Origin: a virus
IMG/VR virus record: IMGVR_UViG_3300027782_000035
Length of the DNA stretch: 64,000 nt
Direction: 5' to 3' (one strand)
Part shown: piece by piece, positions 1,182-54,217 of the stretch
Layout of the letters: every line of letters begins with the position of its first letter
Position numbering within the stretch: the stretch's first letter is position 1
Notes under the pieces: generated by a model
What the model was told of the DNA's origin: nothing
The model's input: the letters and a program-made list of their open reading frames with translations, nothing else
Database searches by the model: none
Position numbers and translations under genes: made by a program

Positions 1182-1631
1182 TTAAAACGAGTATTTCAAA
1201 CCAACTGCAATTTGATTACCATCAAATGCATTTACACTTTTCTGACCTTCTTGACGGCGCCAATCAATCGTTGCGGCCAAATTCTTGGCAACAGGAACAG
1301 AACCACCGACACCAGCAGTAACGGCATAACCATCAGCACCAGTTTGATTCATCAAATATGCAACGCCACCTTTTACTGCAACAGTAACAGGTCCGACTTT
1401 CGTAACATCATATGAACCAACTAAACTATAACGGTCTTGGTCATTTGTCCCTTGAACGAAACGAGTGTAACCGGCTTCAACACCAATAGCACCAAATTTT
1501 TCACCTAAAGTAATACCATAACCTGTGCGGTCGGCACTACCAGAATAATCACGGGTACCGTTTACACCAACTTCTACTGCTGATGCTGATAATGCCAAAG
1601 TGGCCAATGTTGCAAATAAAACTTTTTTCAA
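1182..1631 (-). CDS. Outer-membrane beta-barrel protein (OmpA-TM/Ail-Lom-like)
   Basis: Signal peptide, alternating beta strands, C-terminal VGLKYSF BamA signal. Confidence 0.8.
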   Translation of the reverse strand: MKKVLFATLATLALSASAVEVGVNGTRDYSGSADRTGYGITLGEKFGAIGVEAGYTRFVQGTNDQDRYSLVGSYDVTKVGPVTVAVKGGVAYLMNQTGADGYAVTAGVGGSVPVAKNLAATIDWRRQEGQKSVNAFDGNQIAVGLKYSF

Positions 1632-1654
1632 AATAAACTCCTTGTTGTTAATAG

Positions 1655-1990
1655 TGGTTAGTTATTCTGTTACGAGGAAACTAACCGAAACCCTAAGCTG
1701 CGTTTAAGCTGCTAATGCGAACTGTGAGTCGTTTGCGTTTACTTTTTTTGCTTGATTAACGGTCATCGCCTACCGTGTTGCCGTCGCCACTATCTAGCCC
1801 TGTCGAAACTATGCAGGCCCATCAGAAAGACACTTATGTTTAGTTAACCCTTTATCCCTTACCCACTCAAATCTAATAAAACAGGTTGGGCATAATGCAG
1901 TATATCTATGTTTCATAATTATCTTTTTGGTGGACCTGGGGGGATTCGCACCCCCGTCCAGAACTCCTTCGCTTTGAAGGGATTACAACA
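1655..1990 (-). ncRNA. ssrA: tmRNA, circularly permuted two-piece form (acceptor piece ~1990-1928; coding piece 1820-~1655; tag ANDSQFALAA at 1736-1704)
   Basis: 3' end CAGGUCC-ACCA lies upstream of 5' end GGGCCUG, giving a 7-bp acceptor stem with G3.U70; UUCGAC after the 5' stem; tag ends ALAA-stop. Outer ends approximate. Confidence 0.9.
1809..1916 (-). CDS. Possible 35-aa Cys/His peptide inside the tmRNA intervening segment
   Basis: MKHRYTALCPTCFIRFEWVRDKGLTKHKCLSDGPA; no clear SD. Confidence 0.3.
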   Translation of the reverse strand: MKHRYTALCPTCFIRFEWVRDKGLTKHKCLSDGPA

Positions 1991-1992
1991 AT

Positions 1993-2559
1993 TCAATAAC
2001 TGACTGATAACCTATCAGTCAGTGTAAACTCTCTGTCTCTTACAAATGCAGTCAAAATATATTTTGACCCTGCGATCACACTTTCACCTTGATGAATCAT
2101 TGGTTCTTGTGTGTTGTATTTATAAACAACACAACTGCCACGCCGGGGTTTGATTCTCAAATTGTTTTTGGCAAAAACTGTGCAACCACCTTCAAAATCA
2201 TCATTGAGATACATGATCATTGTGGCTGTTCTTTGCGACGCAAAGCCCGACGTCAAGTCTGTGTGCCAATTGAAATAGTCTCCAACATCATATCTAATGA
2301 GAGGCATGGGTTCAATTTGCTGGATATTTTTAATATTAAAAAAATCTGCCACTCGCTTGGTCAACAAGTCAAAGTACTCATCATTGCCATATTCAATTCT
2401 GTGAGTTTTGCATTTTCTAATGTCATGGTATTCCAACTGACCGTTACGATGAACTTGACCATTTTTCCAATCGTAGTGCTTGGAAAAAATCTTGACAAGA
2501 TCTTGATCACTCAGCCAATTGTCATACTGCACAATTGAAGAACCATGGTGTGTTATCAT
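1993..2559 (-). CDS. 2OG-Fe(II) oxygenase (prolyl 4-hydroxylase-like)
   Basis: HxD (WHTD), YLNDDFEGG, distal H and K.ILT motifs. Confidence 0.85.
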   Translation of the reverse strand: MITHHGSSIVQYDNWLSDQDLVKIFSKHYDWKNGQVHRNGQLEYHDIRKCKTHRIEYGNDEYFDLLTKRVADFFNIKNIQQIEPMPLIRYDVGDYFNWHTDLTSGFASQRTATMIMYLNDDFEGGCTVFAKNNLRIKPRRGSCVVYKYNTQEPMIHQGESVIAGSKYILTAFVRDREFTLTDRLSVSY

Positions 2560-24713: not shown

Positions 24714-24788
24714 TGGTACCTTGTGACGGTTTCGAACCGCCGACATCCCACTTGTAAGGAGGGCGCTCTACCACTGAGCTAACAAGGC
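24714..24788 (-). tRNA. tRNA-Val(UAC)
   Basis: Cloverleaf; encoded CCA. Confidence 0.9.
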
Positions 24789-24795
24789 ATAATCT

Positions 24796-24871
24796 TGGGC
24801 AGACGTTACGGACTTGAACCGTTCCTACGAGTTTCACAGACTCGTGTGCTAACCACTACACTAAACGCTGC
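24796..24871 (-). tRNA. tRNA-His(GUG)
   Basis: Cloverleaf with G-1; bulged acceptor stem. Confidence 0.85.
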
Positions 24872-24874
24872 ATA

Positions 24875-25006
24875 TACCATATAGAAACACACTGTGGTGC
24901 TTGAATCCGTGATAGCCCCTCTCTTCCTGGCCGGTCCTTGCACTGTCTAGAATTGGCAAGTATTTCGGTGTTCCAGTGTAGCTACTCAATGTGTTTTTAT
25001 ATGGTA
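24875..25006 (-). ncRNA. tRNA-trailing 17-bp stem enclosing a ~95-nt insert (element A)
   Basis: taccatatagaaacaca ... tgtgtttttatatggta. Confidence 0.5.
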
Positions 25007-25076
25007 GAGGTACAGGGAATCGAACCCTGATTAATAGGTTAAAAGCCTACTACTTTAGCCGTTAAGTTATACCTCC
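25002..25076 (-). tRNA. tRNA-Lys(UUU)
   Basis: Cloverleaf; CCA. Confidence 0.9.
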
Positions 25077-25207
25077 ATTGGTATTTGTTTTTGTGCTTTA
25101 CGTAATGCCTTATTAGACTTACGATGAACACCTGCTTTACGGAAAAGTGCAAGTCGAACGAAGCAGTTACGTTCGCGCACGATTGTCTTTCGTTTACTCA
25201 TCTTCAT
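25067..25207 (-). CDS. Small basic protein (46 aa), weakly ArfA-like
   Basis: AAGGAG SD; RERNCFVRLALFRKAGVHRKSNK; stop codon inside tRNA-Lys. Confidence 0.55.
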   Translation of the reverse strand: MKMSKRKTIVRERNCFVRLALFRKAGVHRKSNKALRKAQKQIPMEV

Positions 25208-25226
25208 TCTCCTTGTTAATAATTAG

Positions 25227-25300
25227 TGGAGCGGGGTAGGAGAATCGAACTCCTCGCTTTAGCTTGGAAGGCTAGGGTATTACCACTATACGAACCCCGC
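25227..25300 (-). tRNA. tRNA-Gly(UCC)
   Basis: Cloverleaf; CCA. Confidence 0.92.
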
Positions 25301-25301
25301 A

Positions 25302-25577
25302 TTATACTTTAATTGTACTCCATTGACGAAGTTTTTCTCGTTTTGCTTCACGAGCTTTTTCTATCCAAAGAGCACCAATGATATCGTGCTCAATAAGTAA
25401 GTCGATCATACACAGAAGATCACCAACTTCTTCCTCAAGATGTTCGCGGTTAGTAACGCTGTTATATTCAGCATCTATACCAAACCTAAACACCTTGCTG
25501 ATAGCTTGGATAACTTCAGCGCATTCCTCTTGAGCGATCAAGAGAATTTCTTTTCCATTGTCATTTGTGTTTTTCAT
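25302..25577 (-). CDS. MazG-like NTP pyrophosphohydrolase
   Basis: EECAEVIQAISK..RFG, LEEEVGDL; promoter at 25584-25612. Confidence 0.75.
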   Translation of the reverse strand: MKNTNDNGKEILLIAQEECAEVIQAISKVFRFGIDAEYNSVTNREHLEEEVGDLLCMIDLLIEHDIIGALWIEKAREAKREKLRQWSTIKV

Positions 25578-25620
25578 ATTGTAATTATACCACAAACACG
25601 AATTAATGTACACCGTTATT

Positions 25621-25696
25621 TGGAGCGGGCGATCGGGTTCGAACCGACGACATTTACCTTGGCAAGGTAATGCTCTACCAACTGAGCTACGCCCGC
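25621..25696 (-). tRNA. tRNA-Gly(GCC)
   Basis: Cloverleaf; CCA. Confidence 0.93.
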
Positions 25697-25697
25697 A

Positions 25698-25904
25698 TTA
25701 ATTGTCTACTACTGTGTACGTAGGGCTAACTATTACATACTTAGCACGCTGCACATTCACTTCAATGATAGGAACACTATTAGCTTCATTCGTTGCTTTA
25801 ACAAAAGCACGTGCTTCATGTTCAGTGTCAAAATATATGGTACCATCTACATTCATAGATGTTTCATCTTCACGCGTAATCAATACAACTTTATATGGTT
25901 TCAT
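25698..25904 (-). CDS. Hypothetical protein within the tRNA cluster
   Basis: ORF fills the inter-tRNA gap. Confidence 0.55.
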   Translation of the reverse strand: MKPYKVVLITREDETSMNVDGTIYFDTEHEARAFVKATNEANSVPIIEVNVQRAKYVIVSPTYTVVDN

Positions 25905-25917
25905 AATGTTTCTTATT

Positions 25918-25991
25918 TGGCATCCCTCCAGAGACTCGAACTCCGACTAATGGTTTTGGAGACCATCGTGCTGCCATTACACCAGAGAGAC
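25918..25991 (-). tRNA. tRNA-Trp(CCA)
   Basis: Cloverleaf; CCA. Confidence 0.88.
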
Positions 25992-25994
25992 ATT

Positions 25995-26077
25995 TGGTAC
26001 CCGAAGCCGGACTCGAACCGGCACGCACTAGGCGGGAGATTTTAAGTCTCCTGTGTCTACCATTCCACCATTCGGGC
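25995..26077 (-). tRNA. tRNA-Leu(UAA)
   Basis: Long variable arm; CCA. Confidence 0.92.
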
Positions 26078-26356
26078 TTATTTCTTAACTAACGGATTCT
26101 CGGAATCTAGCGCATCTTCATTCTTAAATACAACCTTGGCGCTACCAACAGTGCCAGGCATATCTAAAATACAATCTTCAGTAGATAACACATCTTGATA
26201 TTCATTCTTAGCTGTGCCTGTATTATCTTCATCAAGATTATCACGCCTAAAGATAGCGTCCCAACGAGTATTATACTCTTCTTGACTTACGCTAAATGGA
26301 CGTGGATTTGATCCTTTACCTCCGGGATTTCCCGTCATATCAAATGTTGCTGTCAT
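26078..26356 (-). CDS. Hypothetical protein (GGKGS..RP motif)
   Basis: GGKGSNPRPFSV....Y...WDAIF; AGGAG SD. Confidence 0.65.
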   Translation of the reverse strand: MTATFDMTGNPGGKGSNPRPFSVSQEEYNTRWDAIFRRDNLDEDNTGTAKNEYQDVLSTEDCILDMPGTVGSAKVVFKNEDALDSENPLVKK

Positions 26357-26364
26357 ATGAACTC

Positions 26365-26487
26365 CTATCTACCTTGTCCTCGATATCTTTTTGTGCGTTT
26401 ACGCGTTTTGTTAAGAGTACTAGTCTTACTTCCGTTTTGACAAGTTTTCTTAACAATTTTTCTACGTGAACTCGTGCCTTTACTCAT
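26365..26487 (-). CDS. Small basic protein ending KRYRGQGR (40 aa)
   Basis: AAGGAG SD; not in ORF track. Confidence 0.6.
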   Translation of the reverse strand: MSKGTSSRRKIVKKTCQNGSKTSTLNKTRKRTKRYRGQGR

Positions 26488-26499
26488 AATTATCTCCTT

Positions 26500-26574
26500 T
26501 GGTGCTGATGGCGGGACTCGAACCCACGACCTCTTCCTTACCAAGGAAGTACACTACCACTGTGTTACATCAGC
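26500..26574 (-). tRNA. tRNA-Thr(GGU)
   Basis: Cloverleaf; CCA. Confidence 0.92.
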
Positions 26575-26585
26575 AAATTATAAAA

Positions 26586-26662
26586 TGGTCGGAGTACAAG
26601 GATTCGAACCTTGGACCCCCTGGTCCCAAACCAGGTGCGCTACCAGACTGCGCTACACTCCG
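26586..26662 (-). tRNA. tRNA-Pro(UGG)
   Basis: Cloverleaf; CCA. Confidence 0.93.
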
Positions 26663-26674
26663 TAAAACTATATA

Positions 26675-26750
26675 TGGTAGTTGAGGTGGGACTCGAACCC
26701 ACGATAGTCACCGTATGAAGGTGGTGCATTAGCCACTATGCTACTCAACC
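26675..26750 (-). tRNA. tRNA with CAU anticodon (elongator Met or Ile2)
   Basis: Cloverleaf; loop UUCAUAC. Confidence 0.85.
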
Positions 26751-26759
26751 ATATAAACT

Positions 26760-26834
26760 TGGTGCCGGATGTCTGGTTCGAACAGACGACCTATCGCTTA
26801 CAAGGCGATTGCACTACCACTGTGCTAATCCGGC
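26760..26834 (-). tRNA. tRNA-Thr(UGU)
   Basis: Cloverleaf; CCA. Confidence 0.92.
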
Positions 26835-26840
26835 GAAAAC

Positions 26841-26917
26841 TGGTAGCGGAGGAGGGATTCGAACCCCCGATTCTTGGCTTATGAGACCAAGCGGATAGAC
26901 CACTTCCATACTCCGCG
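26841..26917 (-). tRNA. tRNA-fMet-like (CAU)
   Basis: CGCGGAG 5' end with a 1:72 mismatch. Confidence 0.8.
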
Positions 26918-26923
26918 ATATAT

Positions 26924-26999
26924 TGGTGGAGGTGACAGGACTCGAACCCGCTACCTACTGCTTGCAAAGCAGCCGCTCTCCCAGCTGAGCTACACCCCC
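26924..26999 (-). tRNA. tRNA-Ala(UGC)
   Basis: G3.U70; CCA. Confidence 0.93.
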
Positions 27000-27007
27000 A
27001 AAAAACT

Positions 27008-27082
27008 TGGCGCGTCCTGAAGGAATCGAACCTCCATCCCAAAGTTCGTAGCCTTGTATATTATCCATTATACGAAGGACGC
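27008..27082 (-). tRNA. tRNA-Arg(ACG)
   Basis: Cloverleaf; CCA. Confidence 0.9.
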
Positions 27083-27089
27083 ATTATTC

Positions 27090-27145
27090 AACAGAATCGT
27101 TTTGCTTTTTTTCATAAAAAGTTTTTTATTGCTGAACCGATTCTA
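27090..27145 (-). ncRNA. CAGCA-stem small RNA, unit 4 (dispersed copy between tRNAs)
   Basis: U-AGAAUCG GUU CAGCAA ... CGAUUCU-GUU; stem covaries with unit 2. Confidence 0.6.
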
Positions 27146-27149
27146 AAAC

Positions 27150-27225
27150 TGGCTCCCCAGCGTGGGATCGAACCACGGACACCTTGATTAACAGTCAAGT
27201 GCAACTACCGCTGTGCTACTGGGGA
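27150..27225 (-). tRNA. tRNA-Asn(GUU)
   Basis: Cloverleaf; CCA. Confidence 0.92.
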
Positions 27226-27379
27226 ATAAATATTTTTATGATAGACGTCAACACCGCAATTGCTCGCTTGTACAAATTTTCACAAAGAAAATACGTACAG
27301 CGTGCGTCTTACACTAACTCTAAAGAATTCAAACTTGATGAACTTCTAAGTAAACCTAAGCCTGAATTCAAACCAATCG

Positions 27380-27467
27380 TGGTGGGTGTTGATGGTAACG
27401 CTCCACGAACCTGACTTCCCATCTCTTTAGGTAACGGTTTTACAGACCGCCGACGGGGGCAACACCC
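27380..27467 (-). tRNA. Atypical tRNA-Tyr(GUA)-like RNA lacking a normal D arm
   Basis: Acceptor GGGUGUU/AACACCC-ACCA; anticodon arm GCGGU CUGUAAA ACCGU; non-canonical D and T regions. Confidence 0.6.
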
Positions 27468-27473
27468 TAAACT

Positions 27474-27547
27474 TGGTCCCCTCGTATGGAATCGGACCAT
27501 CTTCTCTCGGTTATCAGCCGAGTGCTCTACCATTGAGCTACAAGGGG
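27474..27547 (-). tRNA. tRNA-Ile(GAU)
   Basis: Cloverleaf; CCA. Confidence 0.88.
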
Positions 27548-27553
27548 AAATAT

Positions 27554-27629
27554 TGGTAGGAACGATTGGACTCGAACCAACCACACGCAAATTTTCAGTC
27601 TGCTGCTCTACCTGATGAGCTACGTTCCC
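27554..27629 (-). tRNA. tRNA-Phe(GAA)
   Basis: Cloverleaf; CCA. Confidence 0.9.
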
Positions 27630-27635
27630 ATTATA

Positions 27636-27727
27636 TGGCGGAAAGCAGAGGAGTCGAACCCCATCCCATTTCTGAGAACCCAGTTTTCAAGGCTGGTCGC
27701 CGGACCATCCCAGCTGCATTACTTTCC
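27636..27727 (-). tRNA. tRNA-Ser(UGA)
   Basis: Long variable arm; G73. Confidence 0.85.
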
Positions 27728-27734
27728 ATAAACT

Positions 27735-27811
27735 TGGTACCCCAGAGGAGACTCGAACTCCTAAAATTTGGTTTCTAAGACCAACACGTATACCAATTCC
27801 GTCACCGGGGC
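27735..27811 (-). tRNA. tRNA-Leu(UAG), short variable loop
   Basis: 77 nt; Leu-type D loop but no long variable arm. Confidence 0.85.
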
Positions 27812-27818
27812 AATAATT

Positions 27819-27963
27819 ATTGTTAAGTGTTATCCGCCGATTTGTCAAAAATGTAGCTAGCACTGACAAGCGAATAGCAGTTATATCAGGACCTGTTCCT
27901 CGCACAGTTAGGCCCGCATAGTGTAAGCGTCCTTACACGATACCTTGATAACACTTAACAATA
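27819..27963 (-). ncRNA. Structured RNA enclosed by a perfect 17-bp stem (element D)
   Basis: tattgttaagtgttatc ... gataacacttaacaata; internal hairpins. Confidence 0.5.
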
Positions 27964-27968
27964 AACTA

Positions 27969-28043
27969 TGGCGGTGCCAAGGGGTAACGATCCCCTTCTT
28001 CGAGCGTGACAGGCTCGTGTGCGTCCATGAACACTTTGGCACC
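27969..28043 (-). tRNA. tRNA-Asp(GUC)
   Basis: Cloverleaf; G73. Confidence 0.88.
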
Positions 28044-28047
28044 AAAT

Positions 28048-28236
28048 TAGGATAAGCTACTGGGTTCCACGCCAGCCCTTAATTGAGCAGTTACTCTGTC
28101 CATCCCTTTTATTCTGATGTCTGTGTGCAGAGGGAACTGCCTATCAGAGCCTGAGGGGTTACCTCGCTAACGGTTTTCTGCCACCGGATCTCTGTCGCTA
28201 ATCAAACGCTATTTTAACGAAAATAGTAACGGGATT
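28048..28236 (-). ncRNA. Unassigned multi-hairpin structured RNA
   Basis: GC-rich, ORF-free, several hairpins (e.g. CUAUUUU-CGUU-AAAAUAG, UCUGAU...AUCAGA). Confidence 0.4.
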
Positions 28237-28237
28237 C

Positions 28238-28410
28238 TACCATAAAGAAACACACTGGCAAATCCCTTCCTGAGACTATTGCGTTTGCTCCGCTCACTCT
28301 TGTTTTCTCGGATTCCTTGGGCTTGAGATTAAACTCAGGAAAGCATAGGGTTCCAGCCTATGGCTAACATCCGCCCTCACCGGTACTGGGCAATGTGTTT
28401 CTTTATGGTA
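28238..28410 (-). ncRNA. tRNA-trailing 17-bp stem enclosing a ~135-nt structured insert (element B)
   Basis: taccataaagaaacaca ... tgtgtttctttatggta (perfect). Confidence 0.55.
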
Positions 28411-28480
28411 CACGGTACGGGAATCGAACCCGTCTTACATACGTGAAAGGCATGTGTCCTAACCGATAGACGAACCGTGC
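28406..28480 (-). tRNA. tRNA-Glu(UUC)
   Basis: Cloverleaf; CCA. Confidence 0.9.
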
Positions 28481-28510
28481 ATGGTGGTGGTTTTTAGAGA
28501 ACCACCAAAC

Positions 28511-28621
28511 TCAATGGCTGACCTTTGGTCATTTAATGTTTCCTGCTCGGCGTTTTGACGTGCATCCTTTTCAGGCTGACCTTCAAGGTCCATTTAATGC
28601 GTCCTGCGTTGCGTTTTGAAA
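28511..28621 (-). repeat. Tandem pair of ~50-nt structured RNA motifs in the tRNA operon leader
   Basis: UCAAAACGC-n3-GCAGGA-nn-CAUUAAAUG(G)ACC-loop-GGUCAGCC..UGA, two copies. Confidence 0.6.
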
Positions 28622-28676
28622 CAACCTTTACGTGCCTCATGCTCCGTATTTACCGTAGACTTAGAGAGGACTTTTA

Positions 28677-28746
28677 GAATTTTTAAAGAACGTTTGCTTT
28701 ATCAGCAGTAGATAGAGATTATACACCATCTACGATTTATTGTACA
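28677..28746 (-). promoter_or_regulatory. Early promoter, hairpin and rrn-like boxA for the tRNA operon
   Basis: TGTACA-N17-TATAAT; UGCU-GAUAA-AGCA hairpin; CGUUCUUUAAAAAUUC. Confidence 0.65.
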
Positions 28747-28755
28747 CCGTTATTT

Positions 28756-28947
28756 TTAAACTCTTTCAACGGTTCCTAAAACACCGCGCGTACCGCGCGT
28801 GTATTTAGACACAGTCTGAGCCCATACAGTGTACCTAGATTTGTCAATGGGAAAAGTCTCTTGACCTTTCTTTGGTCCACGATAAGCGCACTGAGTAAAC
28901 TTAACGCCATCAATAACGATTACAGTGTCTTTAGATTTCCTAGCCAT
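28756..28947 (-). CDS. Hypothetical early protein
   Basis: AAGGA SD; own promoter and palindrome at 28978-29039. Confidence 0.6.
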   Translation of the reverse strand: MARKSKDTVIVIDGVKFTQCAYRGPKKGQETFPIDKSRYTVWAQTVSKYTRGTRGVLGTVERV

Positions 28948-29189
28948 TTAAGTTCCTTTGTTTGACTTGATATAGCTATTCTATCAAATTGACGATTTAT
29001 TGTACACCGTTATTTCAATAGTTGACTAAAACAGTCAACTTAAACCTTTAGTATTCAAAATGCATCAGGTGATCTTGAAAGGCATCGAGCTAGGGTAATC
29101 CCTATCGAGCCATCAAACGTTCATTCTGGTGCATTCTGTACACATAAGTTGTTGATTTATAAGGGCTAAAAATAGCCTTTTTATCACTT

Positions 29190-29267
29190 TGGAGCAACGG
29201 GTGAGATTCGAACTCACGGTTTTACGGATTTGCAATCCATTGCGTTGGGCCTCTCCGCCACCGTTGC
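29190..29267 (-). tRNA. tRNA-Cys(GCA)
   Basis: U73; CCA. Confidence 0.88.
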
Positions 29268-29268
29268 A

Positions 29269-29826
29269 TTAATTCCATACACGAGAATGTTTTGGCACTC
29301 CTGACTTTAGGTACTCCATCTGATCAGCCAGAATGTGTCGATTCTGAAGGATCATGTTTTCGTAATGATTAGGTGCGTATGGAACATATAGAAGTTCAAG
29401 CCCGCACTGATGAAGTAACTTGGCTCCTTTATGAGTGTTACACTTTACGCATGCAGTCACTACGTTAGACCATACGTTTTCACCACCTTTTGAAACTGGA
29501 ACAATGTGATCCCGTGATAGGTTGTTATTGGTAAAGAGCCCACCACAGTAAGCACATATATGCTTGTCGCGCGAGAATAAAGTTTTATTTGTTAGGATAA
29601 CACTGCCAGCACGTTCGATTGCAAATCCTTTACCACGTACAGCAATGATCGATGGAGTTTCTATAACGGACATACGGCCATCATTCTGAGTTCCTCCACG
29701 GAACGTTGCTACTACGTCACCAAGAGTCCACACTACCATATCCTTAGCGAAGTATGATACTGCGTCTTCATAGTTAATCCACTTGCGTGGTAGTCCAGAT
29801 ACGTCTAATGCTAATACATGTGACAT
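29269..29826 (-). CDS. HNH endonuclease (McrA-like)
   Basis: RD...CAYCG, DHIVPVSKGG, WSNVVTACVKCN..KG. Confidence 0.9.
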   Translation of the reverse strand: MSHVLALDVSGLPRKWINYEDAVSYFAKDMVVWTLGDVVATFRGGTQNDGRMSVIETPSIIAVRGKGFAIERAGSVILTNKTLFSRDKHICAYCGGLFTNNNLSRDHIVPVSKGGENVWSNVVTACVKCNTHKGAKLLHQCGLELLYVPYAPNHYENMILQNRHILADQMEYLKSGVPKHSRVWN

Positions 29827-29863
29827 GATTACTCCTTACAACTTTCTTCCTTAATTATATAGG

Positions 29864-29939
<76 letters not shown>

Positions 29940-29947
29940 ATTAAAAC

Positions 29948-30039
29948 TGGTACCAGCGGAGGGGATCGAACCCTCTCAAGAACGCTAATCTGGCGCTAAA
30001 AGGCTTATAAGACCTCTCTGACTTCCAAGTCTCGCTGGC
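29948..30039 (-). tRNA. Atypical tRNA with UAU anticodon and long variable arm
   Basis: Acceptor GCCAGCG/CGCUGGU-ACCA; minimal D arm GACU-UGGA-AGUC; canonical T arm. Confidence 0.75.
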
Positions 30040-30044
30040 ATATT

Positions 30045-30134
30045 TGGCGGAGTGACTGGGACTCGAACCCAGAAGCCTGCTTTCGCAAACCGACGGATTA
30101 GCAATCCGCTCTAATACCATTATAGGACCACTCC
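30045..30134 (-). tRNA. tRNA-Ser(GCU)
   Basis: Long variable arm; G73. Confidence 0.9.
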
Positions 30135-30141
30135 AAAATCT

Positions 30142-30219
30142 TGGTCTGGGTAGCAGGATTCGAACCTGCAGCCTCGAAGTTCCAAACCTCGCCGTCTACC
30201 TGATTGACAATATACCCAG
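30142..30219 (-). tRNA. Second, divergent tRNA-Pro(UGG)
   Basis: Loop UUUGGAA (A37); CCA. Confidence 0.8.
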
Positions 30220-30225
30220 ATGAAA

Positions 30226-30307
30226 CCATATCGAAACACACTTCGGATACTGTACTAAACAGGAACTATCCACCACGGCCATGGCGCTGAAATGCATTTC
30301 AATATGG
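30226..30307 (-). ncRNA. tRNA-trailing stem with ~50-nt insert (element C)
   Basis: ccatatcgaaacacac ... atgcatttcaatatgg; same family as A and B. Confidence 0.45.
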
Positions 30308-30378
30308 CACCGGAACTAGGGTTCGAACCTAGGACGACAGAGTCAAAGTCTGTTGTGTTACCACTACACTATTCCGGA
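30305..30378 (-). tRNA. tRNA-Gln(UUG)
   Basis: Cloverleaf; G73. Confidence 0.9.
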
Positions 30379-30395
30379 TCAATTATAAAGAATAC

Positions 30396-30470
30396 GAATT
30401 TTTAAAGAACGTTGTCAATCTTTTTGATTGACTGTAGATGTATTATACACCATCTACGATTTATTGTACA
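30396..30470 (-). promoter_or_regulatory. Early promoter, boxB-like hairpin and rrn-like boxA
   Basis: Promoter identical to 28718-28748; GUCAAUC-AAAAA-GAUUGAC hairpin; CGUUCUUUAAAAAUUC. Confidence 0.7.
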
Positions 30471-30476
30471 CCACTA

Positions 30477-30512
30477 AACAAAAAAGGCCCTAGTTTTTTT
30501 ACTAGGGCCTTT
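30477..30512 (-). terminator. Intrinsic terminator (attenuator) upstream of the tRNA array
   Basis: AAAGGCCCUAG-loop-CUAGGGCCUUUUUU. Confidence 0.85.
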
Positions 30513-30540
30513 GGTTAGATTAACTTGCTTCTATCTTACC

Positions 30541-30639
30541 TTAGACCCTTACGCTCCATTCTGGAGAAAATGTGCGTGCAATCGCCTGATCATTTAGACC
30601 ATTAAATTTTACGCTATAAGATATGTAACAGAGATGCAT
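30541..30639 (-). CDS. Putative attenuator leader peptide containing all 20 amino acids (32 aa)
   Basis: MHLCYISYSVKFNGLNDQAIARTFSPEWSVRV; stop codon inside the antiterminator; AGGT SD; late promoter upstream. Confidence 0.7.
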   Translation of the reverse strand: MHLCYISYSVKFNGLNDQAIARTFSPEWSVRV

Positions 30640-30668
30640 GATTACCTATTAAGTTAGGGTGTTTAATT

Positions 30669-30676
30669 TATTTATA
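30669..30676 (-). promoter_or_regulatory. T4-type late promoter TATAAATA
   Basis: Exact consensus ~30 nt upstream of the leader ATG. Confidence 0.7.
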
Positions 30677-38115: not shown

Positions 38116-38404
38116 TTATACCATTACTAATTCCTGTAATAGTATATTTATAATCAGATCCTGCAACGAAGTTATAGGTACCTTCAGAAGGCGTACTACC
38201 ACAAGTTATTGTGAATGGCGGCTCCCAATATGGCTTTGTTGTAACTGGCGAATACTCTTTGATCTTATAGTAGTCTGGTCTTAGATCAGGCCACGGAGCT
38301 GGAGTTTTATCTTCTTGATTCTGTGTATCAGAAACGCCAGTTTTAATTTCTTCGTATGTTCCATCGTCATAGTAGATTGTTACCTTATTGATCTTCTTCG
38401 ACAT
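38096..38404 (-). CDS. Hypothetical protein
   Basis: GAGGAG SD before MSKKINK. Confidence 0.55.
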   Translation of the reverse strand: MSKKINKVTIYYDDGTYEEIKTGVSDTQNQEDKTPAPWPDLRPDYYKIKEYSPVTTKPYWEPPFTITCGSTPSEGTYNFVAGSDYKYTITGISNGINVDLSK

Positions 38405-54176: not shown

Positions 54177-54217
54177 ACAAACTCCATCTATAAAGTAATA
54201 ATATATTTATAAAACTA

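Follow-up and report, generated by a model that had tools for sequence, protein, structure and literature searches.

A 32-codon ORF that contains all 20 amino acids lies on the minus strand between a T4-type late-promoter motif and an array of tRNA genes in the 64,000-nt stretch of DNA analysed here (the window), and the question raised by this locus is what such an ORF does in such a place. An earlier note had read it as the leader peptide of a transcription attenuator in which a ribosome stalled at any codon allows read-through into the tRNA genes. The parts on which that reading was built were recovered. The ORF was present at 30541..30639 with 20 of 20 amino acids, and TATAAATA, a predicted promoter, was present at 30669-30676, 30 nt before the leader ATG. 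The strong terminator was located at 30512-30483 (12-bp stem, T run, -19.5 kcal/mol), and the isoacceptor codon pairs listed for repeated residues (CTC/CTA, ATA/ATT, TCT/AGC, CGC/AGG and GTA/GTC) were right. In minus-strand order from 30680 to 30375, the region comprised TATAAATA, a Shine-Dalgarno (SD) sequence, the leader ORF, the antiterminator, the terminator, a sigma-70 promoter, a hairpin with a boxA-like element, and tRNA-Gln. The features were as follows.

30669-30676, minus strand: T4-type late-promoter motif TATAAATA, 30 nt 5' of the leader ATG
30644-30647, minus strand: SD-like AGGT, 4 nt 5' of the ATG
30541-30639, minus strand: leader ORF, 32 codons plus stop, 20 of 20 amino acids, the set being complete at Trp28
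30587-30601, minus strand: small in-ORF hairpin at codons 13-18, with a 5-bp stem
30543-30549, minus strand: region 2, the antiterminator 5' strand AGGGUCU, formed by codons 31-32 and the first stop base
30513-30540, minus strand: antiterminator inner hairpin, GGU...ACC with AGAU...AUCU, which fits either state
30504-30510, minus strand: region 3, the shared strand AGGCCCU, whose partner is region 2 or the terminator 3' arm
30480-30512, minus strand: intrinsic terminator with a 12-bp GC-rich stem, a 6-nt loop and a U run (hairpin 30512-30483, -19.5 kcal/mol)
30442-30470, minus strand: sigma-70-type promoter (TGTACA, 17 nt, TATAAT) between the terminator and the first tRNA gene
30396-30432, minus strand: hairpin and boxA-like GTTCTTTAAAAA, 3' of the sigma-70-type promoter
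24714-30378, minus strand: tRNA array (ARAGORN, Rfam), headed by tRNA-Gln at 30378-30305
29826-29269, minus strand: HNH endonuclease gene within the tRNA array, which it splits

Relatives of the module

Relatives were drawn from IMG/VR and metagenome contigs by DNA pattern (exact or degenerate), by the 78-aa protein encoded next to the module, by a peptide profile and by the tRNA-Gln anticodon arm, all of these searches being blind to amino acid content. This yielded 20 variants of the module in contigs of uncultured T4-like phages; their peptides, of which 17 were distinct, were 31-35 aa long. About six classes could be distinguished by sequence, and pairwise identity averaged 60 %. The peptide profile search added two further peptide types only. 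Six loci that matched the degenerate core pattern were discarded as unrelated high-GC sequences. No match to the module was found among GenBank phages by DNA or by peptide, and therefore no cultured relative is known; the adjacent ligase was at most 43 % identical to the ligases of KVP40-like and PA5oct-like phages.

The left neighbour of the module varied, being the ligase, the 78-aa gene or two small genes, and the right side was constant, the promoter, the boxA-like element and tRNA-Gln always following. As the earlier note had anticipated for related phages, an ORF of 31-35 codons with full or near-full amino acid coverage was kept despite divergence to roughly half identity. The pattern that the same note had named as contrary evidence, a terminator kept where the ORF and antiterminator are lost, was absent, all three elements being kept in 18 of 18 variants with a complete downstream part. 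In L007:3150-3441 the 78-aa gene was followed immediately by a boxA-like sequence and tRNA-Ser, without the late promoter, leader ORF, terminator, early promoter or tRNA-Gln; the module is therefore dispensable in at least one genome or assembly.

The leader of L021 (2956-3181) looks recombinant from its sequence, the 5' half matching class B (as in L002) and the 3' half resembling class D. Its terminator was unlike that of every other class, and all 20 amino acids and a matched antiterminator were retained.

Predicted late promoter and phage type

Every variant of classes A-C retained the motif TATAAATA 27-37 nt before the ATG, with differing flanks, and in one class the motif was free of overlap with the upstream stop codon. 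In classes D and E, TATATATA stood in its place. The window encodes a T4-type RNase H, a SegE-like endonuclease and an alpha-glucosyltransferase, and a homologue of the late sigma factor gp55 was found in the complete relative G002 (166.8 kb; 39 % identity, E=5e-18), which has its own module with TATATATA; no gp55 was found within the 64-kb window. Given these T4-type genes and the gp55 of the relative, it is reasonable to read TATAAATA as a T4-like late promoter.

The motif was not enriched in the window (6 found vs 4.8 expected), and three of its copies sit 28-30 nt 5' of start codons. At 38145-38152 and 54204-54211 (both minus strand) it occurred 28-30 nt before, respectively, a SegE-like GIY-YIG endonuclease gene and a 243-aa ORF, and these two sites are consistent with T4-type late promoters; the second was itself preceded by a terminator-like hairpin. 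A permuted tmRNA gene was predicted by ARAGORN at 1613-2020 (minus strand), with TATAAATA 97 nt upstream at 2117-2124.

Coding character of the leader ORF

The ATG, the reading frame and the length of 31-35 codons were kept across the variants. Every class possessed an SD-like motif (AGGT, GGGT, AAGGA, GAGG or GGAG) approximately 4-8 nt 5' of the ATG, and these motifs persisted although the 5' UTRs differed between classes. In-frame pN/pS was 0.38 between classes and 0.25 for close pairs, and the shifted frames gave 0.68-1.29. Among the eight closest sequences the variable sites were distributed 11/5/14 over the three codon positions and 19 peptide columns were invariant. Codon 19 (Ala) was found in all four forms (GCG, GCA, GCT and GCC), and a Gln-Ala core was common to 17 of 17 peptides. 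On this signature the leader ORF is probably translated.

The peptide is conserved beyond what amino acid coverage needs. Part of this conservation is due to RNA structure inside the ORF, where the 5-bp hairpin (30587-30601) was kept in all classes with changed base pairs; its preservation at the RNA level accounts for a swap of Gly and Asp in the peptide. Speculatively, this hairpin may act as an RNA polymerase pause hairpin that synchronises ribosome and polymerase.

Amino acid coverage

The earlier note had called for the chance of complete coverage to be computed. For a 32-residue peptide of this phage's composition the probability of holding all 20 amino acids was P=5.4e-4, and none of the 10,701 32-residue windows taken from the long ORFs of the window held all 20. 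Among the 229 short ATG ORFs of the window, one other, of 41 aa and with no further gene-like marks, also had the full set, and the single case is therefore only moderately surprising. Since a single case is suggestive and nothing stronger, the comparative data carry the weight.

All 20 amino acids were present in 15 of the 17 distinct peptides. The set was completed at an invariant Trp (residue 27-30) in 14 of these 15, and in those 14 the residues after the Trp, which are encoded by the antiterminator strand, were repeats only. Four module variants, representing two distinct peptides, fitted the 20 residue types into 27 residues. Composition was constant as order shifted between classes: Tyr and His moved, Gly and Asp were swapped, and Thr, Ser and Pro were permuted. 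Coverage was incomplete in L009, which lacked Phe and Pro, and in L028, which lacked Cys; in L010 the sole Val was at the last codon. A null model based on an inferred tree and on site-specific residue preferences from the same alignment expected complete coverage in 3-5 of the 17 peptides, with P(>=15)<=0.003 even when divergence was set below that observed; this null is crude in that sites are treated as independent, the N-terminal third is aligned with some uncertainty and the exchange of Gly and Asp keeps the RNA hairpin intact as well. The comparison argues that shared ancestry and site conservation alone would not account for the retention of coverage.

These data bear on a generic translation-coupled attenuator, one that reports only whether ribosomes keep pace with the polymerase (through initiation, ribosome supply or global inhibition) and in which the content of 20 amino acids is incidental or serves some other purpose. 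The anatomy and co-variation described below apply equally to such a device. Most amino acids occurred once per leader, and tandem regulatory runs were absent, which would suit it, as would the broken coverage of the three variants L009, L028 and L010. Nor were leader codons enriched for those read by phage tRNAs: 25 of 32 (78 %) were so read, compared with 79 % genome-wide, and a choice of leader codons to match the phage's own tRNAs was not supported on this basis. A generic attenuator is nonetheless unlikely, given that coverage was far above the tree-based null, that a random 27-mer would hold all 20 residue types, as some members do, with P=3.6e-5, that rearrangements kept the composition, and that the module, wherever found, stood at the start of the tRNA array.

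Terminator and antiterminator

The alternative pairing proposed in the earlier note was found when the RNA was cut before the terminator 3' arm, the MFE fold of this RNA being AGGGUCU:AGGCCCU plus the inner hairpin (-16.5 kcal/mol). Terminator and antiterminator share one strand and therefore cannot coexist, so that the mutual exclusivity for which a fold check had been suggested holds. The antiterminator was in the nascent-RNA MFE fold of 17 of 18 variants and in the local folds of 11 of 11 representatives (at least one per class; -14.0 to -19.2 kcal/mol), and a terminator with a U run was present in every complete variant (-12.1 to -24.2 kcal/mol). Region 2 overlapped the stop codon, or lay just 5' of it, in every variant; with respect to the stop it spanned -6 to 0 in most classes, -1 to +7 in L021 and -12 to -3 in L028.

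The pairing was maintained through sequence change. The inner-hairpin pairs GGU/ACC became GAG/CUC in other classes, and three-way co-variation linked the terminator 3' arm with regions 2 and 3 at positions -6, -5 and -2 relative to the stop. In the order region 2:region 3:3' arm, these positions read A:U:A, G:C:G and U:G:C in the window class and C:G:C, A:U:A and G:C:G in the L050 class. A terminator of quite another sequence (AAGCCUUAA core) occurred in L021, where a different strand over the stop codon matched it. Cognate strands paired better than shuffles (p=0.004 for the window, <0.0005 for L050 and L021, and 0.0015 for L028) and better than non-cognate pairs (-17.1 vs -7.9 kcal/mol, and -14.6 vs about -5 to -10 kcal/mol).

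In the model-based (covariance-model) alignment, 94.4 % of cells were paired, compared with 81.3 +/- 2.1 % in shuffles, a test that understates pairing because region 3 of L100, L051, L140 and L028 was one column out of register in this alignment (A3) as well as in the MAFFT alignment (A2); the pair tables rest on per-sequence folds. Five of the 10 antiterminator pairs were changed on both sides (3.6 +/- 0.8 in shuffles), and 27 cells were compensated (11.3 +/- 3.1 in shuffles), a value reached by 0 of 500 shuffles. The covariation score was 0.387, and that of slid-partner controls did not exceed 0.14. The antiterminator is thus under selection. No conserved region-1 partner for region 2 was found across the classes; ACCCU in the 5' UTR of the window was considered for this role and rejected, the 5' UTR pairing being absent from other classes.

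The three-way co-variation weighs against a simpler account, in which the ORF is an ordinary small late gene with a promoter and terminator of its own, the terminator also insulates the tRNA operon against transcription from upstream, and the hairpin at the stop codon serves mRNA stability or translation termination and has no part in read-through. A stability hairpin needs none of this, whereas here one strand has two alternate partners and all three co-vary. The overlap of the strand with the ORF end was also kept where helix and stop had shifted (L021 and L028), the leader peptide belongs to no Pfam or PHROG family, and the retention of amino acid coverage would be left unexplained. For these reasons an ordinary late gene is improbable, despite the in-frame purifying selection and invariant peptide positions that it would share, the array's own promoter just downstream, and the fold of the full-length RNA, in which the terminator state is favoured (-51.6 vs -43.1 kcal/mol). 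A factor-dependent switch, in which the ORF is not the sensor and the antiterminator is held together or opened by a phage or host protein or by an RNA (a tRNA, for instance), is very improbable. Alternative helices alone leave the ligand unspecified, and the nearby element, if its presumed likeness to boxA is accepted, shows that the region uses host antitermination factors. Against such a switch, no match to an Rfam riboswitch, T-box or known leader RNA was obtained with E allowed to rise to 10, the ORF bears a coding signature and is preceded by a conserved SD, and a stop codon lies in or beside the sensor strand in every class.

tRNA array and downstream promoter

ARAGORN predicted 26 tRNAs for 19 amino acids and Rfam 24 tRNAs. 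The count in the earlier note, 28 genes for all 20 amino acids, was too high. A tRNA-Tyr gene was called by neither ARAGORN nor Rfam. A candidate at 27380-27467, within a tRNA-like element at 27378-27470 (minus strand), combines a GUA anticodon loop with an acceptor stem of 8 bp and lacks a normal D arm; this non-canonical candidate would be the sole Tyr decoder of the array. A similar HNH homing-endonuclease gene was present at a comparable place in the tRNA arrays of L019 and L021.

The tRNA genes do not, as had been stated, follow the leader directly, since a strong sigma-70-type promoter (30470-30442), a hairpin and a boxA-like element intervene before tRNA-Gln. In every complete variant a promoter of this kind, near-consensus in the window, began the right-hand part 60-70 nt beyond the leader stop, and a near-identical copy of it lies inside the array at 28746-28718 (minus strand). 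Both copies precede a hairpin and boxA-like GTTCTTTAAAAA (units at 30396-30470 and 28677-28746, minus strand), a sequence which we take to resemble the rrn boxA consensus. The paired promoter/hairpin/boxA-like units suggest that the tRNA operon may be subject to rrn-style processive antitermination. The conserved promoter 3' of the terminator makes the array independent of the switch, and because the array has its own promoter or promoters, the switch could gate only read-through from the late promoter or the upstream operon.

Proposed mechanism

On balance, the module is probably a ribosome-mediated transcription attenuator at the head of a phage tRNA operon. Each of the computational checks suggested in the earlier note favoured this reading, its function being deduced. 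Parts, conservation, coding signature, mutual exclusivity, co-variation and coverage retention were observed directly, and from them we infer promoter activity, translation of the leader, the direction of the switch and its physiological signal.

Transcripts from the late promoter, plus any from the upstream ligase operon, would carry the 32-codon test ORF, and the device would be a race between translation and transcription. A ribosome arriving promptly at the stop codon would cover region 2 and the 5' strand of the inner hairpin, leaving region 3 free, so that the terminator would form and a leader RNA of roughly 185 nt would be released. If the ribosome lagged, through slow initiation or through slow decoding in the first 26-28 codons, for instance because a tRNA is in short supply, lacks its amino acid or has been cut, the antiterminator would form first: free region 2 would capture region 3 once this was made, and the polymerase would enter the boxA-like element and the tRNA genes. 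With no region-1 partner, an untranslated leader would default to read-through.

As every amino acid occurs within the first 27-30 codons, the device would sample the decoding of all of them. The reach of a ribosome is approximately 12-15 nt downstream of its P-site codon. Sensing would therefore end at about codon 26, with Trp28 and perhaps Glu27 at the edge of the zone, and a ribosome stalled at Trp, or perhaps Glu, may, on known footprint sizes, give no signal. The proposal that a stall at any codon is sensed would accordingly hold for about codons 2-26 and would fail, on this footprint, at Trp28 and perhaps at Glu27. Single codons should give low gain unless a stall is severe.

By analogy with T4, it may be conjectured that the switch acts late in infection, when early promoters are possibly off. 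The roles of phage tRNA genes and their regulation are debated; the main proposals are that the genes compensate for codon usage, replace host tRNAs that have been degraded, or help to evade defences that target tRNAs (PMC10264068). The attenuator could, tentatively, be a homeostat in which late read-through into the phage's near-complete tRNA set follows when any tRNA runs short or is cut, as by host anticodon nucleases; this further step is possible and we hold it with less assurance than the attenuator itself. A translated sensor coupled to the tRNA operon, if real, would mean that the phage measures decoding performance and responds to it, and leader-peptide attenuation would extend from single amino acid pathways to the whole translation apparatus. 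The module would then also be a compact natural part (<200 nt) that signals when decoding is slow, whichever amino acid is concerned.

Comparison with known systems

The earlier note had known of no description of such an attenuator in phages, and none was found in the literature or in Rfam, Pfam or PHROGs; in the literature, leader-peptide attenuators were found only for amino acid, synthetase-type and resistance genes, and none before phage tRNA genes.

The 6S RNA region of lambda (PR'-tR') resembles the module in having a late promoter, a transcript of approximately 190 nt and a strong terminator before the genes. In lambda, however, the agent is Q bound to polymerase and DNA, with no leader ORF and no alternative hairpin. 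The rrn boxA leaders, like the region studied here, have a promoter followed by a hairpin and a boxA-like sequence. The boxA-like element of the phage belongs to the neighbouring promoter and lies outside the attenuator, and it would act on any polymerase that passed the terminator. T-box elements likewise tie the choice between terminator and antiterminator to tRNA charging, but there the uncharged tRNA is itself bound, by a specifier codon and the T-box loop, and translation is not required, whereas a conserved ORF is present here.

Similar in anatomy are the antibiotic-responsive Firmicutes leaders discovered by Term-seq (vmlR, bmrCD and lmo0919, among others; see also PMC9226507), in which a small ORF and alternative hairpins respond to general ribosome slowing and not to the supply of a single amino acid. 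These leaders induce resistance genes and usually terminate by default; the present leader, in contrast, is on a phage late transcript before tRNA genes and has a complete peptide composition.

A further parallel is with the enterobacterial leaders trpL, hisL, pheL and leuL and the multivalent thrL and ilvL, which share with the module a short leader, a terminator and an antiterminator that shares a strand with it. In the enterobacterial leaders a ribosome at the stop masks the antiterminator strand, so that fast translation leads to termination, and the same would hold for the module. The two have no sequence or Rfam relationship, and they differ in several respects. The enterobacterial leaders regulate biosynthetic enzymes, compared with phage tRNAs here. 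In the trpL, hisL and pheL leaders, sensitivity comes from tandem regulatory codons, whereas the phage leader has all 20 amino acids, each about once. Unlike the enterobacterial leaders, the module has a promoter between the attenuator and the genes and no region-1 partner that could be found, so that read-through would be expected whenever the leader is untranslated. In its logic the module follows trp-type attenuation; what would be new is the quantity that it senses and the kind of gene under its control.
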